The translations under genes and the position numbers were made by a program. DNA of 64,000 nt from Mytilus edulis (taxonomy: Eukaryota): positions 60,140,001-60,204,000 of the forward strand of contig NC_092346.1 of assembly GCF_963676685.1 (NCBI RefSeq). The letters run 5' to 3'. A model generated the notes under the pieces. It searched no databases. It worked only from the letters and a program-made list of their open reading frames with translations, and had not been told where the DNA came from. Position 1 is the stretch's first letter; each line of letters starts with the position of its first letter. Below are positions 1 through 48,501 of the stretch, piece by piece.

Positions 1-1115
1 CAAAAGAGAATGAAATCTAAGAAAGAAATAAAGTCCTTCCAAGTTTCTTCTAATTTACTCTCATCTGTATCTCTATCCGATTTTTCGTTTTCGTTCCTAT
101 CGGTGATTTTTCTTTTACTTTTGCATCGACACGCCATTACGGCTGATAGCAAACGAGGGACCGGATCAGTTCTGAAATGAAATCGTAGTTGTATTGCAGT
201 AACGCACACCGTAAACAATGCAATTCCTAACTGAAATATCATGTACTGTCCAAAAATGGATCCTGCCGTCTTTGGAAGTTCAGAATTCACGATTATCAAA
301 AATACCGCAAATGACAGAAAAACGGTGATAGAGTATCCCATCTTCTCTCCGCTATCTGCTGGGAGAACAAACGTGAAGAGATTCAGAACGCCAAGTAATA
401 TAACAGGTACGATTATGTTTAAAACATAAAATCCTGGAGTTCGCTTAATCGTGACAGAGTATGTTAATCTAGATTCCAAGTCAAATGTGTCATGATACAA
501 CTTGGTTGAGATTACAGTCCATACAGCATCATCTTCTAATTCATCTGTTACTATTCCGTAGGTTCCCTCCTGAATTTGTACCTCAAATGCATGATGGGAC
601 CAGTCAATAAACGAGATATTGCATGTTTGGTGATCAAACGGAAAATATTGAACGTCAATGTTGCATTTCGATTCAAAAACTTCGTAAGGTTCCCATATCA
701 CATGTCCAGATATATTAATATTTACATTGATTACACTACTGCCCAATTCCTGTAGCTTGGTAAATCCATTTTGCAATGCAAGTGCTGGTTTCCACACGTA
801 ACTCTGTGGGATATTTATACTTATCATTCCACCATAGCTTGTTGGGTCCCATTCCAGATATTGATCTTTCCATAGTGTGCTCAAATAACCAGTAGTAGTG
901 AGTCTTTGTGACGCTTCGTCTACTCCGTTTATCCCAATTAAATGGAAATCGACCATAAGCACAAGCAAGTCATTCTGATCTCTGACTGGGCGAACTTTCT
1001 TTTGATACTTATTTGTAGTGAACAAATCTGTGACTAAAGATTTAGCATTGTCTCCTGTTTGTGCACTGGTAGCCCCAATAGAAATAATAGCGACTAGAAA
1101 GATCGTTGCCGGCAT
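1..1115 (-). CDS. Atypical nAChR-like Cys-loop ligand-gated ion channel subunit, paralog 1 (intronless CDS; 3' end runs off the window start)
   Basis: Hand translation from ATG at 1115: signal peptide MPATIFLVAIISIGATSA, KKVRP, VWKPALALQNG, Cys-loop CNIDVQYFPFDHQTC, M1 IIVPVILLGVLNLFTFVLP, M2 GEKMGYSITVFLSFAVFL, M4 start WKDFISFLDFILFW. The frame stays open to base 1 and is absent from the ORF track because no stop is in the window. Confidence 0.93.
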   Translation of the reverse strand, partial: MPATIFLVAIISIGATSAQTGDNAKSLVTDLFTTNKYQKKVRPVRDQNDLLVLMVDFHLIGINGVDEASQRLTTTGYLSTLWKDQYLEWDPTSYGGMISINIPQSYVWKPALALQNGFTKLQELGSSVINVNINISGHVIWEPYEVFESKCNIDVQYFPFDHQTCNISFIDWSHHAFEVQIQEGTYGIVTDELEDDAVWTVISTKLYHDTFDLESRLTYSVTIKRTPGFYVLNIIVPVILLGVLNLFTFVLPADSGEKMGYSITVFLSFAVFLIIVNSELPKTAGSIFGQYMIFQLGIALFTVCVTAIQLRFHFRTDPVPRLLSAVMACRCKSKRKITDRNENEKSDRDTDESKLEETWKDFISFLDFILF

Positions 1116-4100
1116 TGCTGTTATGAGTCCATTTGATGTTTAATGGTTTTGTGTGAATAGAAATCCTATTTATATGATACTTAAAATCAATAAACTTGTA
1201 CAAATACAATTTTAATACAATCAGACTGGCTATAACAGACCATAACAACAACTTAAATCGTAAAACTTAATCGTTAAAAGTAAAATCACAAAAATACTGA
1301 ACTCAAAGGAATATTCAAAAAGGAAAGACCTTAACAAAATGGCAAAACCAAAAGCTCAACTGTCCTATTACTGACTTTGTAAATTTCAAATACAAGTTTG
1401 ATCAAAATCAGGAGTAAACTTTTGTTTTATTACGTCCGTTGATACATGACCTTTTTTCATATTTTAAAGATTTTGTTGAAAGGGGGTATACTTTCTCAGT
1501 GATATTTTATGGGCTGAATTAGTTACGTCTCATGTGTGTTTTGATTTATGTAATCGTTGATGGGTTTCCATCATGTATGTTCTGGTTCATCTTTTAGGTA
1601 TAATCGTATCGTTACAGGTTTTCGTTACTAAATTAATTAACTGATTATTTCAGAAAACTAAGGCTTGTGGTTTCTGAGACAAAATAAGATCCATCCATCC
1701 ATCCACACATCAAATAGTTCAGGCTTTAACTATGAGTAAAATGTTCTTTGAAATATATATAAGAATAATCAAAATATATCCATTAAATGGTAATATAACC
1801 AATTTTATTTGCTAATTAAGAAGCGGAATAAAATAATTTAAGACAGCAGGGAAGATTAACTTTGTAGTTTTATAGCTTTAACTAATAAAAAGAATGAGAA
1901 CTTTATGTTGTAAATTTTACGATGTCTCTGATGTGACCTTGGGGTCAGATTTGTATAACATTGCTATTTGATTTATTGTCTAAATTGTATATCACTTTTT
2001 CACGTGTAGAAAACGATGTGAGTGGATTCCTTACTTCTTATCGGTCAATGATCTTGCGGGGTCAACACAAGTTTACGTGCCATGTGTGCACTTCCTTTTA
2101 TCATTAACTTTCGCCTTGATAACTTGTGATTCTAAAACATTGCGTGAAATTTAAATTTCCCACCCGCAAACCTCCCTTTATTTATCTTTACAAGTAGTTT
2201 TGTTAATAGATTTTTTTTTTTTAGTTGGGCAGATTTTTCTCCCCATCTTTGCTATTATTTGTCATTTATTCAATTGATATGATTTTAGTTGATGTAATTT
2301 CGTATAAATTATGTATTATAATTGCATATTAATTATGAACTTTTATGTCAATTGTTTTATTTGCAAATTGTATTTTTTTGCATTTTATGATTTTGAATAA
2401 ATGACCTTTTTTCGTCAATCTTGTTTTTATAGATATAGCAAAACAAGCTCAAACTCTGGCTGACATGTTTATATGTCAATAAGTTTATGGTATCTTTAAT
2501 AGATTTTTTTGTCAAAAGTACAATTAGCAAATGCAAAAAACTCTTTTTTACGTGCTCACTTCGAACAATTAAAGGGGGAAATCGTTCCATGCATATAACT
2601 AAAGCTTCTACTGTATGTGCGATGTCTTGTGTGACTCTGTCAATAGACATCAGATTAGTTATCTAATTTGATCACAGGGCAATAGAATAGATGCAGCATT
2701 GGTATCATGATATTTATACTCTACTTGAGCATATCATATCACAACCTATTATGACAGTCGTCTCTGCTCAAACTTTATGTGAGTGTATTATGCAGTTAGA
2801 ATACACACATGTCACATTGATAATCACAAACGTTTGTTAAAACTCACCAACAACTTGGCAGAATTCGGCCTTTTATATTGTTATTTCCAAAGTTATGCAT
2901 ATGGTATGCAAGTAACCTCAATATATGTCTGTACAACAGACTGGCCATTTAATTGCTAAAATTATTACATTACTGGCAGATCGATTACTACGGCAACCGT
3001 ACTGTCAAATATATACATATATATAAATGTCTATCAAACTCGTGGTAACTGAAGACAGATTAAATACAAATCGGATCGTCGGCTACACAACGAACTCTGC
3101 AAATTCGAGACTAAGTAAATTTAGTCTTTGAGGTTGATGTTACTATTGCTAACGTGATGATCAATGTTGAAGAACTTCTTTCGAAAGTTAGCGAATTCCT
3201 TCTACATCCTAAAAAAACTTGCACTGGTAGAAAGTGGTGTTGAAGTCTACAACTGAATAACATATTGGGCTTGCTTGAGTCCCGAATACTTTTGTCTTTT
3301 ATTTCCTTTCGATGAAATATAATCGAGATGTTTTTCTTTCACTTTTATTAGTGCTATGATTAAAACGGCGATGAGACAGCACCCGAGCAAAACAAAAAAA
3401 ATGAAACAGACCATTTGTGCATATATATTTTTTTTTAAGTTGATATATGCTACATGTATTAAACAACGGCAGGCATCAAAAGCTTACGGTCTTTCCAGCA
3501 ATTTGATCAAATCAAAGAAGTAGAAGTTTCAGTGTAGACTTTGATATTCTTGAAAATTTTGACAGTCCGTACACAACAATGTCCAAAAAAAAAGATTGAT
3601 TAGATTAACCTTTTTTATCACTGTTCTCTTTTTAAAGCGTACAAAGTTTTAAAAAAAATGAAAGATTCATTTTTTTTTTTACAAGTAGAAATTTCGTTTT
3701 TTCTTTTGAATTGATGGACATAAAGGATAAATCAAATCTTGATACAAAATTAATACTTAAATAAAATCTAAAGGAACAGGGCGTTCATTACTGTTGATCA
3801 TATCGTTGAGCTTTCAACATTGGGGAACACATCTTACCTTTACTGTATCCAACACAATATCTTGCAATGGTTTTTAGCGAAATTTATTGACTTGATATGC
3901 ATGGACGAAAACAGGTGCTGGATAATATTTTCAAATTCTGATTTATATTTGGCACTGAAGTAAACATATAAATTAAATGAAATAATGTCAAAAATTACCA
4001 ACCAATCTCCCTGTAAAGACACATTGAATTGGTAAACTTGACATGAGTTATTTTCCCATACTACATTCAATACCTGTTCAACAAAAAAGTAGGATCCATG

Positions 4101-5378
4101 TGTTATTTTTTTTGTTGAAATCAGGACTCTACAGTACAATTTAATTTATATCCAGGCTTCACAGTGAACATTGTCTACTACTCATAGTCAAAGCCATAAA
4201 AAAAAATGGAATGCAATACTAGACTTTATCCACTGTTTAAATCCCGAATAACACATACAATATTGGATAATTTGACAGTTGTGTACATACATCAACCATA
4301 TTAGTCGGGAGGACTGCATAGCAATTTCAATAAACAAATTGACTAAAATCCTTAGATGAAATACTAATCTCAAAAAAACATAAGCTAAAAAGGCGCATTG
4401 TCGTTGCGCTAATTTAAAAAAAAATCCAATCTTTCATTTGCATCACAAGGTTATATTTTATTTGCACCAAAAAATAAAAAAACTTCATTTGCGCCATTTT
4501 ACATGTATTGTATAAAGGAAAAGTTCAATATTCATTGCCCTATCGTAAATGACATTTGTGTTTACAATATTCCCCCTGGAGAATTGAAGGAGTTAATACA
4601 CATTTCTAATACATAACTGAGAGTCACTAAGTTTGGAATTATATAATTAATTTAAGGTGTCAAGATGAATATTGTCAATTCAGAGACAAAAAGAACAAAA
4701 TAAGTCTGTAATTTAGAACGGACACATATATGTTCTGAAAAATGCAGACAAGTCGTTAAAATGTACCAAAAATACTTGCAAAGCCAAATTACAACTTTTT
4801 TTTATCAAAACTTTGAATCAAAATCTTATTTTCAAATAAAACAGAGAATTAATTAACTAATATATTTAAACCATAGTATATTAGTTTTCTCTTCTTATTT
4901 TTAACATTTGTCATTTTGGGACCTTTAATATCGACAATACGATAAGGGCTTTGTTCATTGTTGAAGGTCATACGAAGACCTATAGTTGTTAATTTATATG
5001 TCATTTTGTTCCTTGTGGAGAATTGTTTCATTTTTTATGGCATTTATATTTATGGGGTTCGTGTTGTTTATTCTTTAGTTTTCTATGTTGTGTCATGTGT
5101 ACTATTGTTTTTCTGTTTGTCTTTTTCATTTTTAGCCATGGCGTTGTCAGTTTGTTTTAGATTTATGAGTTTGACTGTCCCTTTGGTATCTTTCGTTGCT
5201 CTTTTATAACACATATGTTTAAATCAGTTTTAATAGATTTACTTTTTTTTAGGGCAAACACGTATAATTCTTCATTTGTCCTCTTTGTGTATACCCTGTA
5301 ATATATCAACAAATATTTTGGACACAGTTTTCTGGGGGAATAGAAGAAAACAACAAATGACTTTAAAAATGCTTCCTT

Positions 5379-6310
5379 GAAAAATTATTACACCGAGTTT
5401 TCGATATCACAAACTGGTCAAAACATTTACTAAATTTTATCACCGGTATAAGGAAATAATTCGTAAATATAACTCAACATGCAGACATCTTATACGTTCA
5501 GGTATTTTACATCCAATCTTTTATGGTAATATTCTTTACAAAGCACAAAAATGTCAGTATTTACCTCAAAAGCTTAAAAAAACCTTTAAACAGACTTATT
5601 AAGAAGGGATATAGGTACGATACTGTTGTCAGGTCATTAAAGATTGCATATCTTTGCATCGGAACTAAACACATATATTTTTTTTAAACAGTTATTGGCA
5701 TGACACGGGTTATGTTCTTCTCATATATGTTATGATAGTATGATACTAAACCCCTAACGAGAGGGATTGTGCCTGATATTCATTTGATGAAGACATAATC
5801 TTTCAATCAGTTTAATTGAGGTCTGGAGCTGGCATTTCAGTTAACTGTTAGTAGTCTGTTGTTATTTATGTATTATTGTCATTTTATTTATTTTCTTTTG
5901 TTACATCTTTTGACATCGGACTCGGACTTCCCTTTAACTGACTTTTAATGTGCGTATTGTTATGCGTTTACTTTTCTACATTGGCTAGAGGTATAGGGGG
6001 AGGGTTGAGATCTCATAAACATATTTAACCCCGCCGCAATTTTGCGCCTGTCCCAAGTCAGGAGCCTCTGGCCTTTGTTAGTCTTGTATGATTTTTATTT
6101 TTAGTTTCTTGTGTATAATTCGGAGTTTAGTATGACGTCCATTATCACTGTACTACTATATATATTTTTAGGGGCCAGCTGAAGGACACCTACGGGTGCG
6201 GCAATTCTCGCTACATTGAAGACCCATTGGTGGCCTTCGACTGTTGTCTGCTCTATGGTCGGGTTGTTGTCGCTTTGACATATTCTCCATTTCCTTTCTC
6301 AATTTTATTC
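5379..6310 (+). mobile_element. 5'-truncated, decayed Penelope-like/RT retroelement (RT C-terminal fragment plus 3' non-coding tail)
   Basis: About 5379-5655 translates, with two frameshifts, as EKLLH..FRYHKLVKTFTKFYHRYKEIIRKY...RLIKKGYRYD. This resembles the KLLxQGYRYHKL...KFY C-terminal region of molluscan Penelope-like RTs. Downstream sequence shares blocks with dispersed repeats elsewhere in the window (e.g. ~25430-25500, ~16095-16150). Confidence 0.55.
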
Positions 6311-7870
6311 CTTAACTATATACCTGTATTTACCTGTAAAATGGCACAAATGAAATATGGTTTGTGGTGCAAATGAAATATTTTTTGGCGCAAATGAAAA
6401 GCCAATTGGCGCAAAATCAAAGCGCCGGTCAAAAACTGTAAAAATATAAGAGCATACATCTCAACTACAAAGAAAGTTTGTATGGCATCTGCACTGCTCA
6501 AAAGATATTATCGTTAAGTACAATGAACAGAAATGTTAGTTGGCATCTAATAATGAAACAGAATCAATTCATGCACATGGAAATCATCAAAGGAACCGTG
6601 TCTTTGTTGCAGTTCTTTTTCTAAAAAGTAAAAAACAAAAATACCGAATTCCAATGAAAATTAGGTTCGGAAAGTACTAATCTAATGGCAAAATCAAAAG
6701 CTCAAACACATTATAGGAATAAAAAAGCACTGTAAATTTCGGACTTGATACATGCATTTAGCCCTTCAACATTAACTCTATGTTTCGAGTGGTGTTTTGG
6801 CAATTCATTGCAAATGATGGGGCCATTTTTCAATAAACTTCGGAAGGGCCAGTTGGTTTAAACAAGAGTGTTATACCCTTACTAACAATACGATCTTTCA
6901 CTTGTCGAAGAACCTTTTTTCAGAAATACGTGTAACTTCAAGAACAACATGAGAGAAATAGAAACGAGACAATGATAATCATATGTCTAAATTTATAAAG
7001 TTGTTTAATTCGAGACATATAAAAAAACCTTTATAAATTCGATGACGATTTGATATATACAGTATCGTTATGGTTATATATTGTGGTTAGAATCGGTATA
7101 ACTCAACTACTTACAGTCAATTTCTCACAGTCAATTTGTTATAACACAAGTATTGATAGAACTATCTTATACAGATTTAGGGTTAAAATTCAATCTAAGT
7201 AAGAGGATAAGAATCAACTAACGGTATAAAATCACTAATTAGGGCTTGATAAAAATTAATATTCAAAACAAAAAAGTTCCAAAGTCTATCTAAAACTTTG
7301 TAATTAAGTAAAATATTTTGGTAATTTGTGTGTCAAATAATTGTATTCACAATAGAACCCTTGTTTGATCTTTATTTGAATTAAGACGTACTGTGTATTG
7401 CCTGTTATTTATTCAGAAGAACTTGTTTTTGTACTTCCGAACTTCTGGGTACAAGTGAAATCATAGACAAGACCAGACAAGTACTTTATTGAAGTCTCAC
7501 CACTTGTTACATATAAAATATAAAGCTTTTTTAAAATACAAGTTAACAACAAGAGTCACTTTAAAGAGTTATGAGAGGCTATAAAACAATTTTCTTCAAT
7601 TATAATGCAAAAGTCAACTATCATGAGTATAATATATTTTTCGCTTTATAAAAATTTCATAGCAGATTTGGAAGTACAAAATACCATATTTTCATTTGTA
7701 AAAATAAATATAAAATTTTGATTATCAGACATGTAAAAACATTCTCATCTTCATATATACAGTGGAAAGTATACTGCATATTTCAGGAAAAGTTATAATA
7801 AGGTATAGTTTTGACATAAAATGACTGTCACTTTCTTTTTTTTTTTAACTCAAACAAAATATAAATGGCT

Positions 7871-10376
7871 TTTTAGCTCACCTGGCCTAAAAGGCCATGT
7901 GAGCTTTTCTCATCACTTGGCGTCCGTCGTCGTCGTCGTCGTCGTCGACGTCGTCGTCTGTCGTCGTTAACAATTTTTCAAACATCTTCTCCTCTGAAAC
8001 TACTGAATGGATTTGAATGAAACTTAAAATGATTGTTCCTTAGATTATCCTGCACAAAGTGTGTGCTTCGATTTTTGATCCGTCAAAAAACATGGCCGCC
8101 GTTACTTAAAATAGAACATAGGGGTCAAATGCAGTTTTTGGCTTATATCTCAAAAACGGAAGCATTTAGAGCAAATCTGACGGGGTAAAAATGTTCATTA
8201 GGTCAAGATCTATCAGCCCAGAAATTTTCAGATGAATCAAACAAACCATTGTTGGGTTGCTGCCACTTAATTGGTAATTTTAAGGAAATTTTGCAGTTTT
8301 TGGTCATTATCTTGAATATTATTATAGATGAAGATAAACTGTTAACAGCAAAAATGATCAGCAAAGTAAGATCTACAAATAGGTTAATATGATCAAAATT
8401 GTCAATTTACCCCTTAAGGGGTAAATGTCCTTTAATGACAATTTTTCACAATTTGTTCATCATATTTGCTAACTTTAAAAAATCTTCTCCTCTGAAACTA
8501 CTGAATGGATTTGGATGAAACTTAGCATGATTGTTCCTTAGATTATCCTGCACAAAGTGTCTGGTTCGATTTTTGATCCGTCAAAAAACATGGCCGCCCT
8601 TACTTTAAATAGAACATAGGGGTCAAATGCAGTTTTTGGCTTATATCTCAAAAACGAAAGCATTTAGAGCAAATCTGACATGGGGTAAAAATGTTCATTA
8701 GGTCAAGATCTATCAGCCCTGAAATTTTCGGACGAATCAAACAAACCATTGTTGGGTTGCTGCCACTTAATTAGTAATTTTAAGGAAATTTTGCAGTTTT
8801 TGGTCATTATCTTGAATATCATTATAGATAAAGATAAACTGTAAACAGCAAAAAAGATCAGCAAAGTAAGATCTACAAATAGGTTAATATTAGACTATTT
8901 ACCGGATTTGTAACCACTTAAGCAACACGACGGGTGCCACATGTGGAGCAGAATCTGCTTACCCTTCCGGAGCACCTGAGATCACCCCTAGTTTTTGGTG
9001 GGGTTCGTGTTGTTTATTCTTTAGTTTTCTATGTTGTGTCGTGTGTACTATTGTTTTTCTGTTTGTCTTTTTTATTTTTAGCCATGGCGTTGTCAGTTTG
9101 TTTTAGATTTATGAGTTTGACTGTCCCTTTGGTATCTTTCGTCCCTCTTTTAATATGACCAAAATTGTCAATTGAGCTTTTAAGGGGTAAATGTCCTTTA
9201 ATGACAATTTTTCACAATTTGTTCATCATATTTGCTAACTTTAAAAAATCTTCTCCTCTGAAACTACTGAATGGATTTGGATGAAACTTAGCATGATAGT
9301 TCCTTAGATTATCCTGCACAAAGTGTGTGCTTCGATTTTTGATCCGTCAAAAAACATGGCCGCCCTTACTTTAAATAGAACATAGGGGTCAAATGCAGTT
9401 TTTGGCTTATATCTCAAAAACGAAAGCATTTAGAGCAAATCTGACATGGGGTAAAAATGTTCATTAGGTCAAGATCTATCAGCTCTGAAATTTTCAGACG
9501 AATCAAACAAACCATTGTTGGGTTGCTGCCACTTAATTGGTAATTTTAAGGAAATTTTGCAGTTTTTGGTCATTATCTTGAATATCATTATAGATAAAGA
9601 TAAACTGTAAACAGCAAAAATGATCAGCAAAGTAAGATCTACAAATAAGTTAAATACATTGTATGACCAAAATTGTCAATTTACCCCTTAAGGGGTTATT
9701 GTCCTTTAATGACAATTTTTTCACAATTTGTTCATTTGCTAACTTTAAAAAATCTTCTCCTCTAAAACTACTCAACCAAATTCAACCAAACTTCAACTGA
9801 ATGATCAGTAGGGTGTATAAAATAAAGTTTGTGTTTTATTTTCTATTTTGTCTAAAAACATGGCCGTCATGGCTAAAAATAGAACACAGGGTAAAATGCA
9901 GTTTTTGGCTTATATCTAAAAAAAACTCCAGCATTTAGAGCAAATAAGACTAGAAGTTAAAATATTTATTAGGTCAAGGTCTACCTGTCCTGAAATTTTC
10001 AATTTGCAAAAAAAATAATTTGTTGTGCTACTTCCAAAAAATAGAAAATATTCTGACCAGAAAAAAAACCATGTCCCCCTACAAGTTAAATGTTCCATGC
10101 CTAACTGTTATTAATGAAATCATTTAACTGTTTTGCTGTTATTGGAGCCCCTTACCCCTTCTCAGCAATGGAATAAATCCAAATCATGAATGAAGAAATT
10201 CGAAAGAATAACAATTTAATAATGTAACAATAACAATTTTATTGTTAAAATTCTTTTATTGTAACTATAATGTAATAAAAATAACGTCCTGTACATGTTT
10301 GCCTGGCATGGTTCAATATGTTCAATAAGGCACTGTTTACCAGGTGAGCGATTCAGGCTCTTGAGAGCCTCTTGTT
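7871..10376 (+). mobile_element. Non-autonomous Helentron-type element (HINE/pearl-like) with internal ~500-bp tandem repeats
   Basis: T-rich start, AGCTCACCTG at 7875 with inverted CAGGTGAGC at 10341, (GTC)n microsatellite at ~7922-7966, ~500-bp internal repeats starting near 7984, 8482, 9248 and 9752 (last partial), and a 3' palindrome AGGCTC-TTGA-GAGCCT at 10355-10370 followed by CTTGTT. Confidence 0.8.
8891..9149. mobile_element. Short interspersed repeat inserted into a HINE internal repeat, with 7-bp TSD TTAATAT
   Basis: Neighbouring repeat units read AGGTTAATATGA. Here TTAATAT occurs at both 8884-8890 and 9150-9156 around a 259-bp insert. The same family occurs at ~5052-5207, ~20428-20613, ~37670-37850, ~41760-41943 and inverted at ~45478-45600. 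Confidence 0.75.
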
Positions 10377-11341
10377 GAAATACAGAATTTAACACAGATA
10401 GTAATAAGGCAATGAAAAAGTTTTTGTTTTATGCTGCAATAATATGTAAAAAAAAATGGTGTTTAACTGTCTAATTATTAGTATTGTACTAGATAGGTAA
10501 ATGGTGTTTATTTATTTGTTGAACACTTACATGTATTAATGACAAACTGTTCTAATGTGAATTAAAGTAATATACATGTTATTCTAATTTGTTTAACACT
10601 TACATATATTTATGACAAACTTTTCTTTTGGTTATCAAAGAAAAGGTTGAGCTATCTTGTATAGTTTGAATTGTGTGTTGATACAGTTTGAATAACATTA
10701 CATTGAATATGAGTATATATCTGACTTATTTGTACACTTAATACATCATTTCCTAGAAAGGTAAACAACACGTGTCTTGAGCTGTTCCATGGTTGCCTCG
10801 TTGTTTGCGTAATTACAATGACATTGTTCATGCAAATAATAAATGTTTTTATTCCTGTTATCTAATACACATGACTATATTGTTTATCCACGTGTTTATT
10901 CACGTGTAATTTTATTATGTACTTTATTAAACATTAACCAAAGGTCCGAATTGGACCTTTAACTTATAAATGTTAAACTTTGAGTTTAAAGTTTCAACTA
11001 ATGTTGCAAAAATTTCAAAGGCAGGAATAGTATTCTTTGTTTATCAAACTCAAACTACATTATATAATCATTCGAAGTCGAAGCTTATTTTTTCAGCTAC
11101 CCCTCCCCTTTTTTTCCATCCATACCTATTTATATGGAGAATGTATTTTTTTTTATTTGTATACTGACTGTTTCTGTTTTATCTTTTTGGATCTTTCAAT
11201 ATGGCAGCGGCCAGTGCAGATATCATATGTGACATATGTTTGTTTATAAAAAGGAATTTAGCTGCTCAAATGACGATCTGATCCCATAAACATATGTGTT
11301 TTGTTTAATGGTGCAGTCTAAGTGTTGTGGTTTAAGGATTA

Positions 11342-11879
11342 TCTATAATACTAAAATTACGAGGTCAAATTTGTCAGCCGTCATCACGTAAAAACGATGA
11401 ATCAAAGAATTCAACTTTATATATAACTAATATAGTACAATGGTGTTGATTAAAAATTACACCACTCTATGCCCATTTGTTTTCCACGTAATTAATATTG
11501 CCAATAATTATGAAGTTCCGGATCGAGTCCGACACCGATACCAATAGTATATTCACCTGTTACCTATTACCTTATCTATACGTTCCGCATCAGACAGGCG
11601 CACCACCAAACAGTGTATTTAGAATTTTGCTGTATACTGTTGAGTAAAAAATATTCCATTCCAGGCCCTTTTGTTTTCCAAATTATTAATATTACCAATA
11701 ATTGGTAGATTCCAGGTCGACGGGTTCAAACAGAAAGATTTTGAAAGCAGAGAAAACTGTGCACCTTATACATGTTATAATCGGCATGACTTTATCACAT
11801 GACAATACCAATACTAAAATAAGGCATACGCATAGTTATATATCAGTCACGGACCCGCGATATCACGGGTGTGTGCTAG
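11342..11879 (+). mobile_element. Non-autonomous Helitron (538 bp)
   Basis: Starts TC after host A (11341) and ends CTAG before host T (11880), with a subterminal hairpin ACCCGCGATATCACGGGT at 11853-11870 and no TSD. These are the canonical Helitron hallmarks. Confidence 0.8.
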
Positions 11880-14800
11880 TATACTTTATGTTCGGTTGAG
11901 GAACGAACGACAACATAGCAGCACTTATTTAATTCCCTTTTCCCCTCTGTTATCTGCGATTTGTTAATACTGATCTTCATCTGTGTTTTTCAGTGTTCAG
12001 ATAAATGATGATAAAAACCTACCAAAGTGTTCCACTCAATCTCATTTCAGGAACCCACTCGCGCTTAAAATGTCGTTAAAGGATCTTTTTTTATTTGAAA
12101 TGGCCTCACAATGACTTCTAGATACGGAACAGAAATAGTAGCGCTATTCAATTTCTTTTGGTTTTCCATGTCCGTGTAAAATGTTGTACCATAAACTGAT
12201 TCACAGTATTCCTTCTTGATCAAATCATTTGGTTTATTATATATTCAACTCCTACCACCGTCATTTGATACATATATGTTATGGTGTAAAGCAATCTGGT
12301 TGAGTCAAGAGTACCGGTTTTTTCTGGATAAGTATTACTGTCTTGGACTTGCAAATTGAGCTTATCTCTAACCTGATTATCATTTGTAGATATTTTAAAT
12401 CTTTAAAGCGGAGGATAAAATAAAAGTATGGACCGAACTCGTTCCTCTGTTATAGATCTCACTATTTTATTAAATCTTACATTATGCAATTGCATGAGCA
12501 ATTTATAATTTAAATATGCGCATCATAAAAACTTGTTGTTTGTTGACATGCATATCGAATTAAAAGAATACATTATCAATATGAAACACCCATTTAATAG
12601 ATCTATGATTCTGAGTGCTTGCTTTTTTCAGTCCCATTTCTTTTTAACAAAATTTGATTTGTCTTGTATAACCAGAATATTATTTTGTTTGTTAATTTGT
12701 TGAAAAATCCTTTGGTTTATTATTTTGTGTATTCTGTTCTTTTGTCGGATCAACGTATTATTTGTAGGAAAATCGATCTTAGAATGCTGTTGTGAAACAT
12801 GTTGGGCCCATACTATTGTTTCATCCTCCGCTTTAGATTGAAAATGTCTATAAATGATAGAGATTAGCTGAATTTGCAATGTCAAGGGCGAAACTCTTAT
12901 CTAGAATTTCAAGATACTCCTGACTCAATCAATATTCCTTAGCTTTCTACCGCAAAACAAACAATATGACAAAGAAGAGCTACTTATTAAGTATTCTTTT
13001 AGGACACAAATTCACACATGGTATGAAAAACAAAAGCAATGGAATATCGCTTCTATTTCTCTTCAGTCATAGAATTCAGCTTGGAAAAGATCCCTCTCTC
13101 AACATTTTATGTTCAAGTTGGTTCCTACTGTCAGATTGTGTGGATCTACTTGCAAGGTTTTGGTCATACTCTATTGGAAAACACAGATGCAGGGCAGTAT
13201 TGAAAAATCAAAGACAACAGAATGTATAAGGTAATAAGATAAATACTGTTATCATGGCAAACAACGTGAAAACCATAGAGCAGTTCAAGACATGTGTTGT
13301 TTACCTCGTTAGTAAATTACGTATTAAGTTTACAAATAATTTAGATACTTATAATCAATGTTATGATATTCAGACTGTATCAACATACCATTTAAACTAT
13401 TCAAATTTACGATAACTTAAACAATAGCTTATTCATTTAGCTTTTAAAAATGTAAATATAAATCGGAAATAGCTAACGATATTATGACACTTTTCTTTGA
13501 TACCCATTAGAACAGTTTGCATAATAAGACAGAAACAATCACTTCAAGCTTGAACATACTCAAATATACTGTAAGTTCTGTAAGTACTTAGGGTATCCCT
13601 TTACCACACGAATAATGATTAAACCCCTTTGCTATGCATGTTCCATCGTTAAACTTTTCAAAATAAGGAGATGTGGTATGAATGCAAATGAGACGACTAA
13701 TCATCAAAATTCAAATAAAAGAGGGGCGAAAGTTACCAGAGGGACAGTCAAACAGATATAAGTTATAATATGCAACTGTACTGCCTTCAACAATGAGAAA
13801 ACCCCTATCGTTTAGTCGGTTATAAAAGGTTCCAACATGAAAAATATCAAACACTTAAATTGAGAAAACTAACGGCCTAATTAAAAACAAAACAAGTTAC
13901 GAAAAATAAATACTTGTATGACAGACATGAACCAACGACAACTACTCAACTGCAAATGATATAATAAAAAAAAAACCAAGAAACGTCTTCCAACATCCCA
14001 ACATATCGGTCTCTTGATATTTAACTCGACCTGAACTTTAAGGGTTCAGGGGAGTCGGAACCGGGATAAAATATGCTTGTGTTCTTAACTATAATAAAAA
14101 GTAATCGCATATTTTAATAACAGTTGAATAGTTAATTTTAAGAAATCAACATTTGACTGAAAAAAGGGAAATTAAAAGCACTATATTTTAAACATGCCAT
14201 TATGTATTAGGAAATGCCTATTCACTTTTACCAGATACTAGTAAGTAAGTTCAACAACATTAAGATGGAAGGCTAAAATCAATAGAATAGCACTACTATT
14301 GTCAAATTCGGCAATTTATACTTAGAAAAATATCCATCTGTACGACATTTGTAGTACAAGTTCAAGTTGGTTCCTACTACCACAGTGAGCGGATCTTTTT
14401 GCTAGGTTTTGATCATGCTTAATATGTGCAATTAAAAAGGAATACGCTGGGCCTGATTAACAAATCAAAGACTACACTGAGAGGTTATAACGAAATAAAA
14501 AAGATGTTGTTGTTATTTTCCTGAACAATGACATTGTTACAATGCAAATAACGAGGCCACCGTGGAGCAGTTCAAGACACGTGTTGGTTACCTAACTAGA
14601 ACATTATGTAATTAGTGTACAAATAATTCAGATATATACTCATAATCGATGTTATATAATCTAAACTGTATCAACATGTTATGAAAACTATTCAATTTCA
14701 CAATCACTAAAACAACAGCACGTCTATTATCTATTAAAAAGTCAAACACAAATTGGAAATAGCTAACGATATAATAACAGTTTTTCAAAAATATATGCAA

Positions 14801-15131
14801 GTGCTAAACAAATTAACATTAAATTGCACTACTTCATCGCCCATTAAAATGGTTTGTCATAAATACATGTAAGTGTTAAACAAATTACAATCAAATGAAC
14901 CCATTAAGTTTAATATGTAAAATAAACACACCCTATACATATTAAGTACTAGACTAATAATAAGACAGTTGAATGCCGATTTTACCATTTTTGATATGAT
15001 CTCTAAGATGCGTTCTCTAGAGTACATTTTATTGCCGCATAAAAGGGAACTTTAGAAATAAACCAACTCATTCATTGCTTTATTCCAATGTATGTTAAAA
15101 TCTGAATTTCAAGCAATCATTACTATTTTGC

Positions 15132-15438
15132 AATAATTCAATTTTGGATGTAACGCGTCTTCTGATTGGCTGACGTTATTTTGTTATCAGCCCATAGACA
15201 TAATTTAGTCATGTGACCATGACGTCATCAACGTTTTTTCATGGTTTTCTACGGTTTTAAATTGAATTTAGAATTAAATTATAAGAAATGACTGTAATAT
15301 GTTTCTGTCTATTCGAAATAACATAAAAAAATGTGGTGCACACTGTTAAATAACCCGCTACGCGCGTTATTCAGTGTGCACCAAATTTTTTATGTTATTT
15401 CTTCATAGACAGAAAAAAATATTACAGTCATTGCTTAA
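15132..15438. mobile_element. ~300-bp insertion with a ~160-bp terminal foldback hairpin
   Basis: Absent from the paralogous module copy near 19275-19290. Inverted arms at 15281-15356 and 15364-15439 surround the apex GCTACGC. Confidence 0.6.
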
Positions 15439-15600
15439 TTAGTTACAAAAAAGTCATTCCATGTTAAAACTATACATTATCCTAATATGTGTAGAACAAT
15501 GCTACATACTTCAAAATTTATATATGTTTTTCTATATTTCCCCAAAACAGATACATCTGAAAGGAAAAGCAGTCAAAATATACCCATTTATTTCAATTTA

Positions 15601-16594
15601 AGGACCGGTCAAAATTTATTGTCACATAGGACCAGTGCAAAAAATAAAAACATTTAATAAAAGTTACAACCCTATGGCTTTCTGACTGAAAAAAATGATG
15701 CCTTATGCCAACTTAGTAATGAAAAAATTGGTGTCCTATCCTACTTTTCCAATGTATTGTAAATAAAAGTATACTTAATAGAGGCATTTAACATATGTTG
15801 TCTTTATAATATGATCAAAAGCAACAGTTTAATGTTTTATTTTGTTGATTCACATACAATTACAGGCATGGCATTATCATAAATTATACTATGAATATAG
15901 CATTGAAAAAACAAGGACATTGTATAACGCAATCAAACCACAAATAGGTGTTTGTTAAACTGAAAAATTAATGAAGATGCATGTATCTTATATAGAATTT
16001 TATTAAATACCTTTAAATATTAATTATAAAAACAATCTCCAGGAGAAACATGAAACTCAAATCATTTGGTTTAACTCTCTCTATATATTTGAACCTGAAG
16101 ACCCATAGGTTGCCTTGGAATGTGTTTTTTTATTAGGAATGGTAATAATTGCTTTAACATTTTCCCATTTACAGAAAATGTACCTGATGTGACCCCCGAA
16201 TGATTTTTGCTACTTTGTTGGTTGATGTAATGTACATGATGTATGTTTATGATTTTATGAAGTTAAAAATGCATAACTTTATTAACATTATTTTTTTAAT
16301 TCAATTTATTAAAACATTACTGTTTACATGTACATAGTCCAATTATGTTAATAATTCCAATTTTATTAGATAGTTATATCTTCTTTTACATTTATATGTT
16401 ATAGACTGTTATTTCAAGTTTTGTTATAATGTTAATAAAAATTATTTCAAAGTAATCGTTTGAAAAAAAACTTGTGTCGTATGGATATTATCTGTGAAAA
16501 AGTGATGTCCCAACAAAAGCGATTCAGTTAAAAGGTACCTGTTCTACTGCACTTTGCACCGGTCCTATGTGTAGATAAATTTTGACCGCTCCCT
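15601..16594. mobile_element. ~1-kb non-autonomous TIR DNA transposon with TA (or TTA) target duplication
   Basis: ~40-bp imperfect TIRs: AGGACCGGTCAAAATTTATTGTCACATAGGACCAGTGCAAA and TTTGCACCGGTCCTATGTGTAGATAAATTTTGACCGCTCCCT. The empty site TTTCAATTTAGTAT is visible in the paralogous module at ~19464-19477. Confidence 0.8.
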
Positions 16595-17169
16595 TAGTAT
16601 ATTTGTTTTATTAAGTTAAACTTTCAACAAGGTGTCTCGGGTGATTTAAAGTCGTTAATCTTTCATTTGATAGCACACCTACCCACATCTTTTATTTATT
16701 TACAACATTTTAGATATTCTTTGGAACTATTGTGTTAAAAAGTTAAATAAAATATACCGAACTCCGAGGAAGATTCTAAACGAAAAATACCTAAGCAAAT
16801 TGCAAAATTCAAATCTCAAATACATCAACTGAATTGATACAACTGACAACAGACGTTGCCTCGTGGCCATTACAACTATCCTTGGACATTATTTATACCT
16901 CAGGAACGTAAAAGTAAAATCACAAAAATATTGAACTCCGAGGAAAATTCAAAACGAAAAGTCCTACGAAAAAACCTTCCCGTACACTCAAAACTTCGAT
17001 CTGACACTGTGTTGTGTGCAACAAAACGTGCAAAAAGAGATTAAGAAGATGGCGATTCTTCGGTGACAACTCTTGTTACCATCTCTAATAAAAAATAACA
17101 TTTAACAATTTGTATTATTATACCTTACATATATTTTAAACAATTCTTTTGGGTAAAACGTTATCACGT

Positions 17170-31155: not shown

Positions 31156-31291
31156 CAGTGGCGGATCCAGAACTTTTTGTAAGGCGGGCCCGATGGCTGA
31201 CCTAAAAAGGAGGGGGGGACTCAAGTCATGCATCAGTGATTCCCTATATAATCAACCAAATTTTTCCAAGGCCCCCCTGGATACGCCTATG
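31156..31291. mobile_element. Small MITE with 15-bp imperfect TIRs
   Basis: CAGTGGCGGATCCAG ... CTGGATACGCCTATG. A related internal fragment occurs near 28325-28360. Confidence 0.55.
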
Positions 31292-31374
31292 CTGGCATAG
31301 CTTACCATATGGAGAAAGCAACAGGAACTTTTAATCACATCTGCTTGTTTTATAGTAAAACATTAAAAATGCTT

Positions 31375-32220
31375 AGCTGACCGTAGAGATCGAACCCTGA
31401 ACAGTAGGGGCAAATTTGGACATAGTATTAAAGCTTGATACTATCTGAATTTAGATTGTGATCAAATTTATGACGTTATATAGGTTTCTGACACAAGGTA
31501 AATGTGGTCGAAGATCTTAAATCGTATCCGCAATACTGTGCAACTGAAGGTTTCTTCGCGCCCATAACATTTTGTTTTCCTTCTAGGATAAATAACCATC
31601 AAACCAAATCCCAGTCTTTCCTTTCTGGTAATGAACCTTGCAGTACAATTTTAGAGAGGTCCATACACTTGAACACAAGATATTGTCTAGAAACTAGAAA
31701 AAATGTTTGTTTTGCCATTTCTTTTGCCCCTAATTTCTGCATGTTTGGGGCAATTATCCCCGAACAAAATCCCAGTCTTCCATTTGTGATAATGCGAAAA
31801 AGATCCAAAAACGTACATACAAGTAATTATCCGGAAACTACAAACATGATTGTTTTTTGTCCCTTTTTGTTCCTTCATTCCTAAACTGTTAGTACCATAA
31901 CCCCAAAATGAAACCTAACATTCTACTTGTGGTATTGAACACTGTGGTACAATTTCAGAACAATCAAAATTCTTATACACAAGTATTTATCCTAAAACTA
32001 AAAACATGCTTCTTTTATGCCCCTTTTTCGTAAACGATTGGAACCATCATCCCCAACATTATCCCAACCTTCCTTTTGTGGTATTGAACCTTCTTTAAAA
32101 TTTATATAGATCCATTTACTTAAATTAAAGTTGATCGGAAACCAAATGGGTCTTCGGACGACGCAGACGATAACGACATCATAGCAATATACGAACCGGA
32201 AAAAAAAACATTGCGGGGAA
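31375..32220 (-). mobile_element. HINE-like element with ~150-bp internal repeats (related inverted fragment at ~30230-30660)
   Basis: Degenerate internal repeats near 31600, 31765, 31905 and 32055, a (GAC)n-like tract at 32156-32179, and 31378-31435 is the inverted homolog of 30597-30655. Confidence 0.5.
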
Positions 32221-33401
32221 ACATTTCAGTTTACAGTTCACACATGTCAATACTGTGGGAAAATGTATAAATGGCCAGCCAGTTTCTATAGACATATACA
32301 AGTTATAAATAGATATAAATATTAAAGTAATCAAATAAGTTTTTCATTTGTTGCAAGTCTATTTATTACATTAATCTACAATAAAAATTCATCGCATTTT
32401 CGAAAATTCTACATCAGAAATGAATGCCATACAGTGATAATTCATCGCATCTATAGTGAAAATGGCTCGCTTTTAATAACTGATATTCTATTTTATGTTG
32501 CTTTTATTACACATATTTGAACTTTAATACTGTTATTTTACATTAAAAAGACACATCATAATAAAAATGTGTTAAAATTTAGTTTCAAATCAATTATTTT
32601 GGTATTTTCAAAGCGTAAACAAATAAAGTTTTCCCATGATCCTTTATTCTACATGTACAATGAACATACTCGCATACAAAAGTGAAAATAAACTGACTGG
32701 ATTCGCACTTTATATACACTGATCCTCCAATATTATTCGAATTATTATTCGGGATTCAAAAGATATATAGACTCATATCCACTATCAGTGCTGTTTATCA
32801 CATTTGAATGATGGCTGCGGGGATATGATGTACCGACAATCACGAAAATATCCTGTCACCTGTGTAGACCTCGATGAACATATACTATTGAGTTTTATCT
32901 GGTAAAAACTGTACTCTGTTATTATATATTCAATGCTAGTGGTGGTATCAAACAAGAAAAAAATTAACGCATTCCATTTAATGAACTTTAAACTTTTCTT
33001 TTTCTGGCTGAAAGAAAATCTGTTTATATAATACGTATGTCTCAACCTGACTATGCCTAATTATTATTTGAAACTTTATTCTTTTTTTGTGTCTGGTTCA
33101 ATTAAATTCTAAATCACTTGAATGAATGATTGGGATTTTTAAAAGCAGAAATATAATATTTTGACAATTGTATAAAGACTAGAAATATGATACGAACTAT
33201 AATTCAATACTACAATAAGACCTACATGATCCTAGGAATAATGGGTTTTTCAAGAGACAGTTGAATTAAAATATGTTTCTTTATTTGTAGAATATGTTAT
33301 GGCGTTAATCTTAACAAAGGATGTATTTTCCAGTACATTAATAGTTGATACGATTAACGTATAACAGTTGGTAATAATTCTGACGTTGTATACGATTCGG
33401 A

Positions 33402-34580
33402 ATGATTCTTAGAACTACTTTTCTTTTTTATTGGTGCTTGTCAGCCTGCAATGGACAAACCGGGGATGACGTGAAAGGCTTGGTCACTAAATTGTTTACT
33501 ACCAACACTTATAAAAAGAATGTCCGTCCAAACGCTGATCAAACACAGCCAATGCAGGTGGACTTGGACTTCTATCTTGTCGGCATCAATGGAATAGACG
33601 AAATAACACAAAAATTAACAACAACAGGTTTTCTATTTATAAGTTGGACGGACGAGTACCTTACATGGACTCCAGCTTCACACGGTGGCGTAGAATATAT
33701 TTATGTTTCTCAAAGTGATATATGGAAACCAGACATAACACTTCAAAATGGATTTTCGAAACTAAAGGAACTTGGTAGTAGTTTTATAAATGTTCAGATT
33801 TTTCCAAACGGCGAAGTGACTTGGTTGCCAACTGAAGTGTTTGAAACAAAGTGTAATATTGATATCAAATATTTTCCTTTTGACCGTCAAACATGCGAAA
33901 TAGTTTTTGTTGTATGGTCCAGCAGCATATTGGACGTAAATGTGACAAAAGGAAGTAGAGGCATACTTCTGGAAGCATTAGATCCTAATGGTGTGTGGAG
34001 TGTTGTATCGACAACGGCCGGGGACGATGTATTATCGTCGGAGTCAAGAGTTGTATTTACTATAACTCTCGAGCGTAGTTCAGCGTACTACGTCATGAAT
34101 GTCATTGTCCCAGTGATATTACTTGGAATACTGAATGTTTTTACGTTTGTAATCCCAGCAGACAGTGGGGAGAAAATGGGATACTCCATCACAGTTTTTC
34201 TAGCATTTGCCGTCTTCTTAACAATTATAAGTTCTGAACTTCCGAAGACATCGGGATCATTACTGGGAAACTATCTTATGTTCCAAATGGGCATGGGAAC
34301 GTTCGTTGTAGCTGTGACAGCGTTGGAACTTCGAATTCATCACCGGAAAGACAAAGTCCCAAATAAAATTCAAAGAATTTTCAGAAGTAAATGTAAAACT
34401 CGAGTTAAAAGTTCAGATAAAACTTTTGACAATCCGGGAAAAGAAAAGGAAAGTGAGGATGGAGAAAAGACTTGGAGTGATATAACATCTACAACAGACT
34501 TTATATTATTCTGGGTATCATTAGTTTCCACATTCATAGTAACTGTGACCATTTTAGGATTACTTTCATCTAAATATTAA
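33402..34580 (+). CDS. Atypical nAChR-like Cys-loop subunit, paralog 3 (intronless, 392 aa)
   Basis: Signal peptide, IWKPDI, Cys-loop CNIDIKYFPFDRQTC, PADSGEKMGYSITVFLAFAVFL, four TM segments. Confidence 0.96.
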   Translation: MILRTTFLFYWCLSACNGQTGDDVKGLVTKLFTTNTYKKNVRPNADQTQPMQVDLDFYLVGINGIDEITQKLTTTGFLFISWTDEYLTWTPASHGGVEYIYVSQSDIWKPDITLQNGFSKLKELGSSFINVQIFPNGEVTWLPTEVFETKCNIDIKYFPFDRQTCEIVFVVWSSSILDVNVTKGSRGILLEALDPNGVWSVVSTTAGDDVLSSESRVVFTITLERSSAYYVMNVIVPVILLGILNVFTFVIPADSGEKMGYSITVFLAFAVFLTIISSELPKTSGSLLGNYLMFQMGMGTFVVAVTALELRIHHRKDKVPNKIQRIFRSKCKTRVKSSDKTFDNPGKEKESEDGEKTWSDITSTTDFILFWVSLVSTFIVTVTILGLLSSKY

Positions 34581-40390: not shown

Positions 40391-40392
40391 TA

Positions 40393-47283: not shown

Positions 47284-48501
47284 CTAATTAGTAAGCAGAA
47301 GATATATGAGTAATGTTGTAATAATGACTGCGACTAATAAAACCCAAAACAGAATCATGTCAACTCTTGCAATTATATCTGGCCATGTTAATTCTATAAT
47401 GTCGGTGTTTTCCGTCTTAATGACTTCACCATTCATTATAGCACTATCGTTTTGAGTATTGTTGTCAGAACATCCAACAGTCTTTTTACTTCGCATGTAT
47501 TTGATAAACGATAGAGTAAAGACAACTTGCAGCCATTTTGGCACAGGCTTTGATCGGAAGTGTAATCGGAGTTCCACAGCTGTTACTATAACAACGATAG
47601 TACCCATTCCAAGTTGAAACATTAAATAAAATTCCAAAATAGAGCCGGCGGTTTTAGGGAGTGTTGAACTGACAATTGACAGGAATACGGCAAACGACAG
47701 AAAAACTGTAATAGAGTAACTCATCTTCTCACCACAGTCTACTGGTAGTGCAAATGTAAATATGTTTAAAATAGCCAATAACACAATAGGTGCGATAACA
47801 TTTATCAAATAAAATGTAGGGATTCTGCGTACAGTTAGGGAAAACTTGACTCTTGTTTCTGCAGATGAATCTACGGTGGCTGAAGTCGACACAACTTTCC
47901 ATTCCCCATTACCTTTGAAATTGTAAAAATTAATTCCTTTCAATCCCTTTGAAATTTTTATCTGGGAAATACTGTATGACCACACAACAAAAATAATATC
48001 ACACGTTTGCTCATCGAATGGAAATTTTTCAATGTTAATATCACACTTTGTTTCGAATATTTCAAAGGGTGACCATCTCAACATACCATCTTTTTCAATG
48101 ATCACTTTAATAAAACCGTTTCCAAGTTCGTCTAGCTTTTTGAATCCGTTTTGAAGAGAAATATCTGGTTTCCAAATTTTATCTTGTGATACATAGATTG
48201 TTGACAAATTTCCATATGTAGCAGGTGTCCACTGTAGATATTCGTCTTTCCAATATATGTCGACAAATCCAGTTGTTATCAACTTTTGTTTAACCTCGTC
48301 GATACCATTTACAGCTACAAGAAAAAGGTCTAAATCCACTCGTAAGGGTTCTGACTGGTTTAAACTTGGACGCACTTCTTTGTTATAACCGTCCGTTATG
48401 AACAATTTTTTCATCAAAGCTTTCATATTGTCACCAGTTTGTGCTTGGGAACAAGCGTTTAAAAACCAAATTGAAATTATGGATAGTATAATTATTGCCA
48501 T
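47284..48501 (-). CDS. Atypical nAChR-like Cys-loop subunit, paralog 4 (intronless, 405 aa)
   Basis: Signal peptide, IWKPDI, Cys-loop CDINIEKFPFDEQTC, GEKMSYSITVFLSFAVFL, four TM segments. Confidence 0.96.
   Translation of the reverse strand: MAIIILSIISIWFLNACSQAQTGDNMKALMKKLFITDGYNKEVRPSLNQSEPLRVDLDLFLVAVNGIDEVKQKLITTGFVDIYWKDEYLQWTPATYGNLSTIYVSQDKIWKPDISLQNGFKKLDELGNGFIKVIIEKDGMLRWSPFEIFETKCDINIEKFPFDEQTCDIIFVVWSYSISQIKISKGLKGINFYNFKGNGEWKVVSTSATVDSSAETRVKFSLTVRRIPTFYLINVIAPIVLLAILNIFTFALPVDCGEKMSYSITVFLSFAVFLSIVSSTLPKTAGSILEFYLMFQLGMGTIVVIVTAVELRLHFRSKPVPKWLQVVFTLSFIKYMRSKKTVGCSDNNTQNDSAIMNGEVIKTENTDIIELTWPDIIARVDMILFWVLLVAVIITTLLIYLLLTN

Follow-up and report, generated by a model that had tools for sequence, protein, structure and literature searches.

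Single-exon nAChR-like subunits of Mytilus edulis without the acetylcholine-binding cage: candidate chemosensory receptors from an orphan mollusc expansion

Our analysis of a 64,000-nucleotide stretch of the Mytilus edulis genome (the window) revealed four genes, g1 to g4, that encode nAChR-like subunits of Cys-loop pentameric ligand-gated channels and are new members of an already described orphan mollusc expansion. The residues mapped onto the binding site support the conclusion that these subunits cannot provide the principal face for acetylcholine (ACh). Our tentative reading, held with a little less than even confidence, is that they form cation channels of a mollusc lineage that are not gated by ACh and that most likely serve external chemical cues. 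Both the expansion and the idea of ligands other than ACh have already been published (PMC6896357, PMC13174522, PMC10338036).

All four genes are non-alpha nAChR-like subunits with a single exon. They lie at positions 1..1115 (g1, minus strand, 390 amino acids [aa]), 22343..23548 (g2, minus strand, 401 aa), 33402..34580 (g3, plus strand, 392 aa), and 47284..48501 (g4, minus strand, 405 aa). g1 runs past the left edge of the window and is intact in the extended locus L005, its final 55 coding bases and stop codon lying left of the window, and a protein that carries the label Mytilus edulis matches g3 at 99% identity. A preliminary description had spoken of a cluster of four intronless genes. 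Four intact genes were indeed found, each with its coding sequence in one exon; however, the term intronless applies to the coding sequence, as introns in the 5′-UTR are possible, and the array comprises six intact genes and a 79-codon fragment, two of the genes lying upstream of the window. The array includes a repeated block of approximately 45 to 50 kb, part of which occupies positions 1..33637 (plus strand) and whose second copy is located directly upstream of the window. This upstream copy, with collinear segments 84 to 93% identical to the window block, carries copies of g1 (L008, 95% identical) and g2 (L007, 94.5% identical) together with the first 79 codons of g3, and it represents either a true tandem duplication or an uncollapsed haplotype.

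The assignment to the nAChR-like channels is based on domains, motifs, and fold. Each protein matched the Pfam families Neur_chan_LBD (PF02931, 135 to 154 bits) and Neur_chan_memb (PF02932, 58 to 78 bits) and contained a Cys-loop of the form C-x13-C. GEK, 9′L, and 13′V were present in all four, which by motif constitutes a cation-type M2 signature, and the predicted pore of the lineage is conserved at E-1′, 6′T, 9′L, and 13′V. The Cys-loop and GEK (E-1′, K0′) are thus kept as described previously; in g3, the GEK of the M1-M2 link lies at 34167..34175 (plus strand). The predicted model of g3 (pLDDT of 85.7) has four membrane helices, its best fold matches are nAChRs (Z of 28 to 31), and nAChRs were the sole matches listed by Foldseek for this model. 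Sequence and profile searches with g3 and with the clade profile placed beta4 and beta2 at the top of the solved structures, and a search of the ESM Atlas returned generic Cys-loop clusters only.

To locate the pocket positions, we mapped g1 to g4 onto the alpha7 sequence, and the loss of the ACh-binding residues held at every position that had been named. The YxCC motif of loop C is absent from all four subunits, and the four loop-C strings quoted in the preliminary description are present in their open reading frames. The span that begins at the Trp of beta9 and ends at the Arg ahead of M1 is 27, 27, 27, and 26 aa in g1 to g4 versus 33 aa in human alpha7, so loop C is 6 to 7 residues shorter; the same span measures 30 aa in beta4 and 31 to 34 aa in 13 mussel subunits bearing the CC pair. 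In g3, this beta9-loop C-beta10 segment (33996..34076, plus strand, 27 aa) contains neither Cys nor Tyr. In the order g1 to g4, Y93 of loop A is replaced by Q/K/Q/Q, W55 of loop D by Y/Y/F/F, and Y195 of loop C by E/V/E/E. W149 of loop B is kept in all four, and its equivalent in g3, Trp172 (33915..33917, plus strand), is the sole aromatic-cage residue retained. Furthermore, Asp occupies the position of alpha7 S34 in all four subunits and Glu that of Y195 in three, and the 12 pocket positions mapped from the alpha7 sequence are polar on average (mean hydropathy of −0.65 to −1.6). In the beta subunits of vertebrates, the site is blocked by an Arg two residues ahead of the loop-B Trp (10.1101/2025.10.31.685654); Val or Ile stands there in this case, not Arg.

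The four genes are unexceptional within their genome. A six-frame search revealed at least 126 uninterrupted frames of the same kind lacking the CC pair, so g1 to g4 do not stand out from some 120 relatives. Not one of the 126 frames has the CC of loop C; the loop-A Tyr is present in 2 of them, the loop-D Trp in 10, the loop-B Trp in 105, and 9′L in 125. Broken copies, with frames shorter than 330 aa, account for 11 of 105 loci. The same search showed 13 CC-bearing subunits, each matched from mid-domain as an exon-split gene, although it favours single-exon genes. The genome also holds a conventional beta-like subunit, L106, which retains the loop-D Trp and has an M3-M4 loop of 144 aa versus the short one of 45 to 59 aa here. 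Tandem arrays of the single-exon, short-loop-C lineage occur in other bivalves and in gastropods as well.

Phylogenetic analysis placed the non-CC lineage on one side of a branch with 100/100 support, apart from the alpha subunits and together with genes of limpet, abalone, apple snail, and sea slug. The proposal of an independent bivalve family was therefore not borne out, since gastropods share the lineage; a clade restricted to bivalves was neither recovered nor rejected (AU test, p = 0.23). Protein searches found bivalve homologues in Mytilus, scallops, oysters, Pinctada, Mercenaria, and Sinanodonta, and the subclade of the window genes has been retained across mussels, scallops, oysters, and freshwater mussels (96/97). 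L106 grouped with the alpha subunits (100/97), and joining it to the family of g1 to g4 was rejected by the AU test (p = 0.013, in a tree of 26 rows with long branches present). No cephalopod chemotactile receptor (CR) was among the best 60 matches in solved structures when phmmer and profile searches were run with g3, its M1-M3 region, two clade profiles, L136, and a limpet member, and no named cephalopod protein was among the 120 and 119 matches listed in two protein searches. As CRs evolve fast, these results are no evidence against kinship.

The preliminary description had noted diverging binding loops next to a nearly invariant M1-M2 region. Such conservation holds for g1 to g3 (81 to 87% pairwise identity) but not for g4, whose M1-M2 region diverges most (68 to 70%). 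Pairwise identity among the four was 33 to 52% in the loops, 43 to 56% in the whole extracellular domain (ECD), and 20 to 29% in the M3-M4 loop, so the binding loops are not the most variable region; the M3-M4 loop and the signal peptide evolve faster. In the window clade, omega was 0.17 for the loops, 0.12 for the remaining ECD, and 0.06 for M1-M3, and the same order was observed in all seven clades analyzed. Pooled pN from 20 young pairs followed it as well (0.054, 0.034, and 0.023, respectively), and the ratio of pocket to scaffold identity was 0.76 in the window clade versus 0.98 in 13 mussel alpha subunits. Thus, dN/dS by domain confirmed that the loops outpace the pore and the remaining ECD alike, but positive selection was not robust. 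The excess of fast sites in the loops of the window clade was not significant (16/62 versus 22/136, p = 0.12), and the faster loops could reflect plain relaxation. Site models for this clade initially gave a signal (M2a versus M1a, p = 0.008; M8 versus M7, p = 1 × 10−4; M8 versus M8a, p = 0.012); this signal came from a single site, g3 residue 177, where L005 and L008 differ by all three bases of a codon, and it was lost upon removal of L008 (M8 versus M8a, p = 0.31). M2a versus M1a was not significant in six of the seven clades, with low power at 4 to 16 paralogues each.

Transcript-like contigs covered g3 in all four presumed-RNA runs, none of which is on record as RNA. In the same four runs, no cover was seen across most of the length of g2; since the runs had been chosen with g3, this is no evidence of silence. 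In published work (Jiao 2019, PMC6896357), gill showed the highest nAChR expression in every bivalve studied, oyster gill lacked ChAT expression, and some members were expressed ahead of the onset of ACh synthesis. The authors interpreted the expression in gill as responding to ACh that is transported there from the palps. They also reported expression in gonad, in embryos, and after infection, and silent genes were commoner among intron-poor members.

In the mechanism that we favour, a lineage that lost its ACh site would supply subunits that likely assemble with one another into cation channels, presumably pentameric. The ligand would bind at the subunit interface through the kept loop-B Trp and polar or acidic residues; the Asp at the S34 position and the Glu at Y195 would fit a cationic or polar ligand better than the hydrophobic compounds that octopus CRs recognise. 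The predicted ligands of such channels are small, water-soluble molecules distinct from ACh, most likely external cues at exposed epithelia such as those of gill or mantle, and channel opening would depolarise sensory or epithelial cells. Birth-and-death duplication may then have yielded paralogues of differing tuning. A chemosensory role of g1 to g4 is a plausible hypothesis. A wider proposal appears rather doubtful to us. It holds that the single-exon, short-loop-C lineage is to shelled molluscs what the IRs are to insects, namely their main family of ionotropic chemoreceptors, and a possible stock of the CRs; with its Trp-plus-acid pocket, the lineage would sense soluble cues from food, from conspecifics, or for settlement.

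The sequence evidence would equally suit cation channels gated not by ACh or the environment but by an internal signal, be it a biogenic amine, choline or betaine, a peptide, protons or metal ions, or else a metabolite of the immune system or gonad. A pocket of Trp plus acidic residues may suit amines, the molluscan nAChR-like DopC has switched to dopamine (10.1101/2025.04.02.646353), and the expression linked to embryos, gonad, and infection (PMC6896357) points the same way. However, a single internal transmitter does not require a set of over 100 paralogues whose loops vary, and DopC, unlike g1 to g4, still has YxCC and a loop-D Trp (10.1101/2025.10.31.685654); we regard an internal ligand as distinctly doubtful.

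Unlikely, in our estimate, is an accessory role, in which g1 to g4 would be non-alpha subunits that tune ACh-gated channels alongside mussel alpha subunits. Loss of YxCC is what defines non-alpha subunits, replacing the loop-D Trp by Tyr or Phe is a mild substitution, conservation of the pore is strong, and beta4 and beta2 lead the solved-structure matches of g3 and its clade profile. Nevertheless, the loop-D Trp is gone from all four subunits and present in just 10 of 126 frames, and the non-CC genes seen outnumber the CC genes by 126 to 13 in a search that favours single-exon genes. Moreover, a conventional beta-like subunit does exist in L106, which groups with the alpha subunits, and its position outside the lineage (AU p = 0.013) disfavours the view of g1 to g4 as only ordinary non-alpha partners, which the preliminary description had named as its refutation. 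It is more improbable still that g1 to g4 are largely redundant retro- or tandem copies under relaxed constraint, with ligand-independent or little function. The short frames at 11 of 105 loci, the truncated upstream copy of g3, and the larger number of silent genes among intron-poor members (PMC6896357) agree with such decay, whereas the low omega of M1-M3 (0.06) and of the non-loop ECD (0.12) in the window clade and the retention of the subclade from mussels to scallops, oysters, and freshwater mussels argue against it.

Bivalve chemoreception is without a characterised receptor repertoire, CRs are described as known from cephalopods only (PMC11682238), and each bivalve carries 100 to 200 orphan nAChR-like genes (PMC6896357, PMC10338036). 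If the lineage senses the environment, its expansion would be explained, with a bearing on the origin of CRs, and feeding, valve closure, and larval settlement would become accessible at the molecular level. The cluster is easy to clone and compare, as it offers four single-exon genes, all intact, along with two copies of 95% identity whose loop B is different. Between g1 and its upstream copy, loop B differs at three places.

Among known systems, the bivalve expansion of Jiao 2019 (PMC6896357) is alike in its single-exon coding sequences, tandem arrays, non-alpha type, and divergent ligand-binding domain, and homologues of g1 to g4 occur, as that expansion does, in oyster, scallop, pearl oyster, and clam. 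The study counted 33 alpha subunits among 132 oyster nAChR genes and suggested "binding to diverse ligands"; its accessible portion contains no Mytilus genome, loop-by-loop census, or proposal of named chemosensory receptors. Our literature search, which covered few subscription papers, found no functionally tested bivalve receptor of this kind. Vertebrate beta-type subunits and L106 also combine missing vicinal cysteines with a cation-type M2; however, beta4 still has both the loop-D Trp and the loop-A Tyr that g1 to g4 have lost, and L106, which belongs to another lineage, combines a loop-D Trp with a long M3-M4 loop. DopC retains YxCC and the WxD of loop D (10.1101/2025.10.31.685654), neither of which is found in g1 to g4. 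Alvinella Alpo4, an orphan homopentamer unresponsive to ACh, likewise lacks the vicinal cysteines (PMC10338036), and the g3 model aligned with it over 319 residues (Z of 25.8, rmsd of 2.9, 26% identity), but Alpo4 retains the loop-B Trp, the loop-C Tyr pair, and the loop-D Trp and is an isolated gene outside any large array. Cephalopod CRs, a precedent for chemoreceptors derived from nAChRs (PMC11526382), resemble g1 to g4 in this descent, in their expansion, and in the loss of ACh-binding residues (PMC11526382, 10.1101/2025.10.28.685082); they are intronless (PMC13174522), as are the coding sequences of g1 to g4 in their own expanded family. Judging from the spacing of residue numbers, Y58 and Y39 of CRT1 would match Tyr/Phe and His/Tyr/Phe here, and CRT1 probably has Leu153 where g1 to g4 keep the loop-B Trp. 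The CR pocket is hydrophobic, whereas the positions mapped for g1 to g4 from the alpha7 sequence are polar on average, and octopus CRs show many positively selected pocket sites, in contrast to the one non-robust site of the window clade. The predicted fold of g3 is no closer to CRT1 (Z of 23.9, rmsd of 3.2, 289 aligned, 25% identity) or CRB1 (Z of 23.4, rmsd of 3.3, 310 aligned, 21% identity) than to alpha7 (Z of 30.1, rmsd of 4.3, 351 aligned, 30% identity). Finally, MolluscaGenes (PMC13174522) describes molluscan clades with substituted binding residues (CR-like, Non-alpha-1, and others), the CR-like clade spanning bivalves, gastropods, and chitons, and its authors propose non-canonical ligands and chemosensation for such clades.

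The four long Cys-loop reading frames claimed in the preliminary description were found in place and form a genuine cluster: g1 (1 to 1115, negative strand), g2 (22343 to 23548, negative), g3 (33402 to 34580, positive) and g4 (47284 to 48501, negative). Each carries the ligand-binding and membrane Pfam domains, and g1, which leaves the window at its left edge, has a full length of 390 amino acids (aa) in the genome. When residues were placed on human α7 numbering by sequence alignment, the described loss of the vicinal cysteines and loop-C tyrosines was seen in all four genes, as were the replacement of loop-A Tyr93 by Gln or Lys and of loop-D Trp55 by Tyr or Phe, the retention of loop-B Trp149, the Cys-loop and GEK, and a shortened loop C (26 to 27 residues versus 33 in α7 and 30 in β4). 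Furthermore, the positions of α7 Lys145 and Asp197, residues that act with the loop-C Tyr in gating, are occupied by Ser/Ile/Val and Arg/Lys, respectively. The binding loops diverge as claimed (33 to 52% pairwise identity), and the near-invariance of M1-M2 (68 to 87% across the four) holds for g1 to g3 (81 to 87%) but less for g4 (68 to 70%); identity is 43 to 56% in the extracellular domain (ECD) and 20 to 29% in the M3-M4 loop. Judged by alignment, these subunits have a conserved, predicted cation-type pore and lack the acetylcholine principal face.

A tblastn search of the window revealed no extra family fragments between g1 and g4, and a protein labelled Mytilus edulis shares 99% identity with g3. 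Upstream of the window lie two further genes, which match g1 and g2 at approximately 95% identity, together with a copy of the first 79 codons of g3, within a collinear block of approximately 45 to 50 kb that is 84 to 93% identical to the window's left half. This block either arose by a recent tandem duplication or represents a haplotype left uncollapsed in the assembly; the synonymous differences of the copied genes (26 in 268 and 13 in 278 sites) do not separate the two. The upstream copy of g1, L008, differs from it at 19 amino acids, three of which fall directly behind the loop-B Trp (g1 residues 174 to 177), one of the three by a three-base codon change, and the two genes constitute a natural pair for comparing ligand tuning.

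Jointless contigs cover g3, fully or in large part, in four sequencing runs (33331 to 34631, 33313 to 34818, 33490 to 34399 and 33503 to 34924). Two of them start less than 90 bases upstream of the ATG and end beyond the stop codon, as unspliced mRNA would. Since these runs were picked using g3, guessed to be RNA and carry neither an RNA record nor a tissue label, they give only a weak hint that g3 is transcribed. High-copy interspersed repeats (34920 to 35410, 23870 to 24020, 25600 to 26000 and 31000 to 31900) are very deep in the same kind of contigs, and one begins approximately 340 bases past the g3 stop. The window also holds a KolobokP-like transposon (57672 to 63468) with an intact Mutator-like transposase frame (59212 to 61215, positive strand) and an intact His-Me finger frame (61813 to 61349, negative strand), both identified by reading frame and Pfam. 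Its flanking direct repeats have 22-nt inverted ends; a single copy flanks the left side, and the right side carries three 461-bp copies in tandem. Their 100% identity suggests a recent insertion. These features agree with the transposon in the part of PMC9587614 consulted.

Of 388 candidates from a genome search with g3, 106 were scored and 105 of these read, 94 of them carrying a frame of at least 330 aa; a Pfam search, in which 150 of 494 candidates were scored, added 49 places. After exclusion of four places (three interrupted by stops, the other on a small contig), the pooled searches, which are biased toward single-exon genes and yield lower bounds, gave at least 127 uninterrupted frames, two coding for an identical protein and one being L106, a conventional beta-like subunit. 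Among the 126 family frames, loop-C vicinal cysteines (CC) occurred in none, the loop-A Tyr in 2, the loop-D Trp in 10 and the loop-B Trp in 105; none retained more than two of the four scored aromatics, and loop C measured 24 to 29 residues in 115. All 13 CC-bearing subunits seen matched from mid-domain only, as expected of exon-split genes. The genes g1 to g4 are unexceptional representatives of an orphan expansion that was already known. M2 16′, presumably a position affecting calcium permeability, is Thr or Ser in 111/126 frames and Leu in α7. Loci L136 to L140 form a single-exon non-CC clade on a separate long branch, with a loop C of 34 to 35 aa and Phe at M2 6′. Five further single-exon subunits (L141, L142, L143, L145 and L162) have an M1-M2 link without the -1′ Glu (GAK, AQK and TK types) and, by their residues, may differ in ion selectivity; in L141, L143 and L145 the C-x13-C loop carries Glu where Asp is usual.

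The proposed phylogeny was run with molluscan nAChR-type sequences other than the cephalopod chemotactile receptors (CRs). Non-CC genes fell on one side of a branch and CC genes plus L106 on the other (SH-aLRT 92 and 99 in two trees; 100/100 in a careful 26-row tree), although the sequences were confined to nAChRs, so that the position of the root is an assumption and long branches may have affected the trees. L106 grouped with the alpha subunits (100/97), and its placement inside the family was rejected (p-AU 0.013). This sets g1 to g4 apart from the ordinary beta subunit of the mussel. L106 (L106:607-2232, G000:C7; 542 aa) has a single exon, which distinguishes it from the alpha subunits it groups with. 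The suggested independent bivalve family was not supported: genes labelled Patella, Lottia, Haliotis, Pomacea, Elysia, Physella and Aplysia lie inside the lineage, which is therefore older than bivalves or, at the least, extends beyond them, while a bivalve-only clade was not rejected (p-AU 0.23). The window subclade covers mussels, scallop and freshwater mussel (96/97).

Our codon-model code reproduced the IQ-TREE M0 likelihood (-6358.03 versus -6358.04). As anticipated, omega decreased from loops A-F through the rest of the ECD to M1-M3 in all seven clades (on a coarse grid, 0.17, 0.12 and 0.06 in the window clade and 0.35, 0.21 and 0.12 in clade Y). In 20 young pairs, pN was 0.054, 0.034 and 0.023 for these regions, and in the same pairs the M3-M4 loop (0.080) and signal peptide (0.105) exceeded the binding loops. 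The ratio of pocket to neighbouring-scaffold identity was 0.76 in the window clade versus 0.98 in the 13 alpha subunits. Positive selection was significant in one of seven clades, at one site five residues past the loop-B Trp, and vanished once L008 was removed. The genes are clearly under purifying selection with looser loops, and diversifying selection lacks support.

We infer that g1 to g4 subunits would assemble channels among themselves, with a non-acetylcholine ligand binding at the subunit interface. Asp at the α7 S34 position (11/11 window-clade members) and Glu at the Tyr195 position (three of g1 to g4), together with the retained Trp, favor a polar or cationic small molecule over hydrophobic ligands of the CRT1 type. 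External chemical cues are, tentatively, the single most likely source of this ligand, ahead of all rivals, given the family's size and turnover and the gill-dominated expression of bivalve nAChRs as a whole (PMC6896357, in the part consulted). An internal non-acetylcholine signal gating the channels is a less probable source. That g1 to g4 are accessory subunits assembling with alpha subunits is somewhat less probable still, and the grouping of L106, rather than the family, with those subunits speaks against it; redundancy of the four genes is improbable.

Ligands other than acetylcholine have been proposed earlier, as far as the consulted parts of these sources go. Jiao et al. (2019) described the intronless tandem expansion, with a majority of oyster genes being non-alpha, and suggested diverse ligands (PMC6896357); MolluscaGenes reports clades with changed binding residues and a CR-like clade including bivalves, and raises chemosensation as a possibility (PMC13174522). 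Further background is found in PMC11526382, PMC11682238, 10.1101/2025.04.02.646353, 10.1101/2025.10.31.685654, 10.1101/2025.06.15.659772 and 10.1101/2025.10.28.685082. The literature searched contained no functional test of a bivalve family member. The present analysis adds a count of the family across the genome, its split from the beta-like subunit and its extension to gastropods.

Neither the CR hydrophobic pocket, with positions mapped from the α7 sequence, nor the strong positive selection of CRs was found in the family, the latter in the clades tested; CRT1 ligands are hydrophobic, whereas that predicted here is polar or cationic. The predicted g3 model (pLDDT 85.7) matched α7 with 30% identity (Z 30.1), 5-HT3A with 28%, the Alvinella orphan channel Alpo4 with 26%, CRT1 with 25% (Z 23.9) and CRB1 with 21%. 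By architecture, the family is a candidate CR-type chemoreceptor family, much as De Gieter et al. likened Alpo4 to CRs (PMC10338036, in the part consulted).
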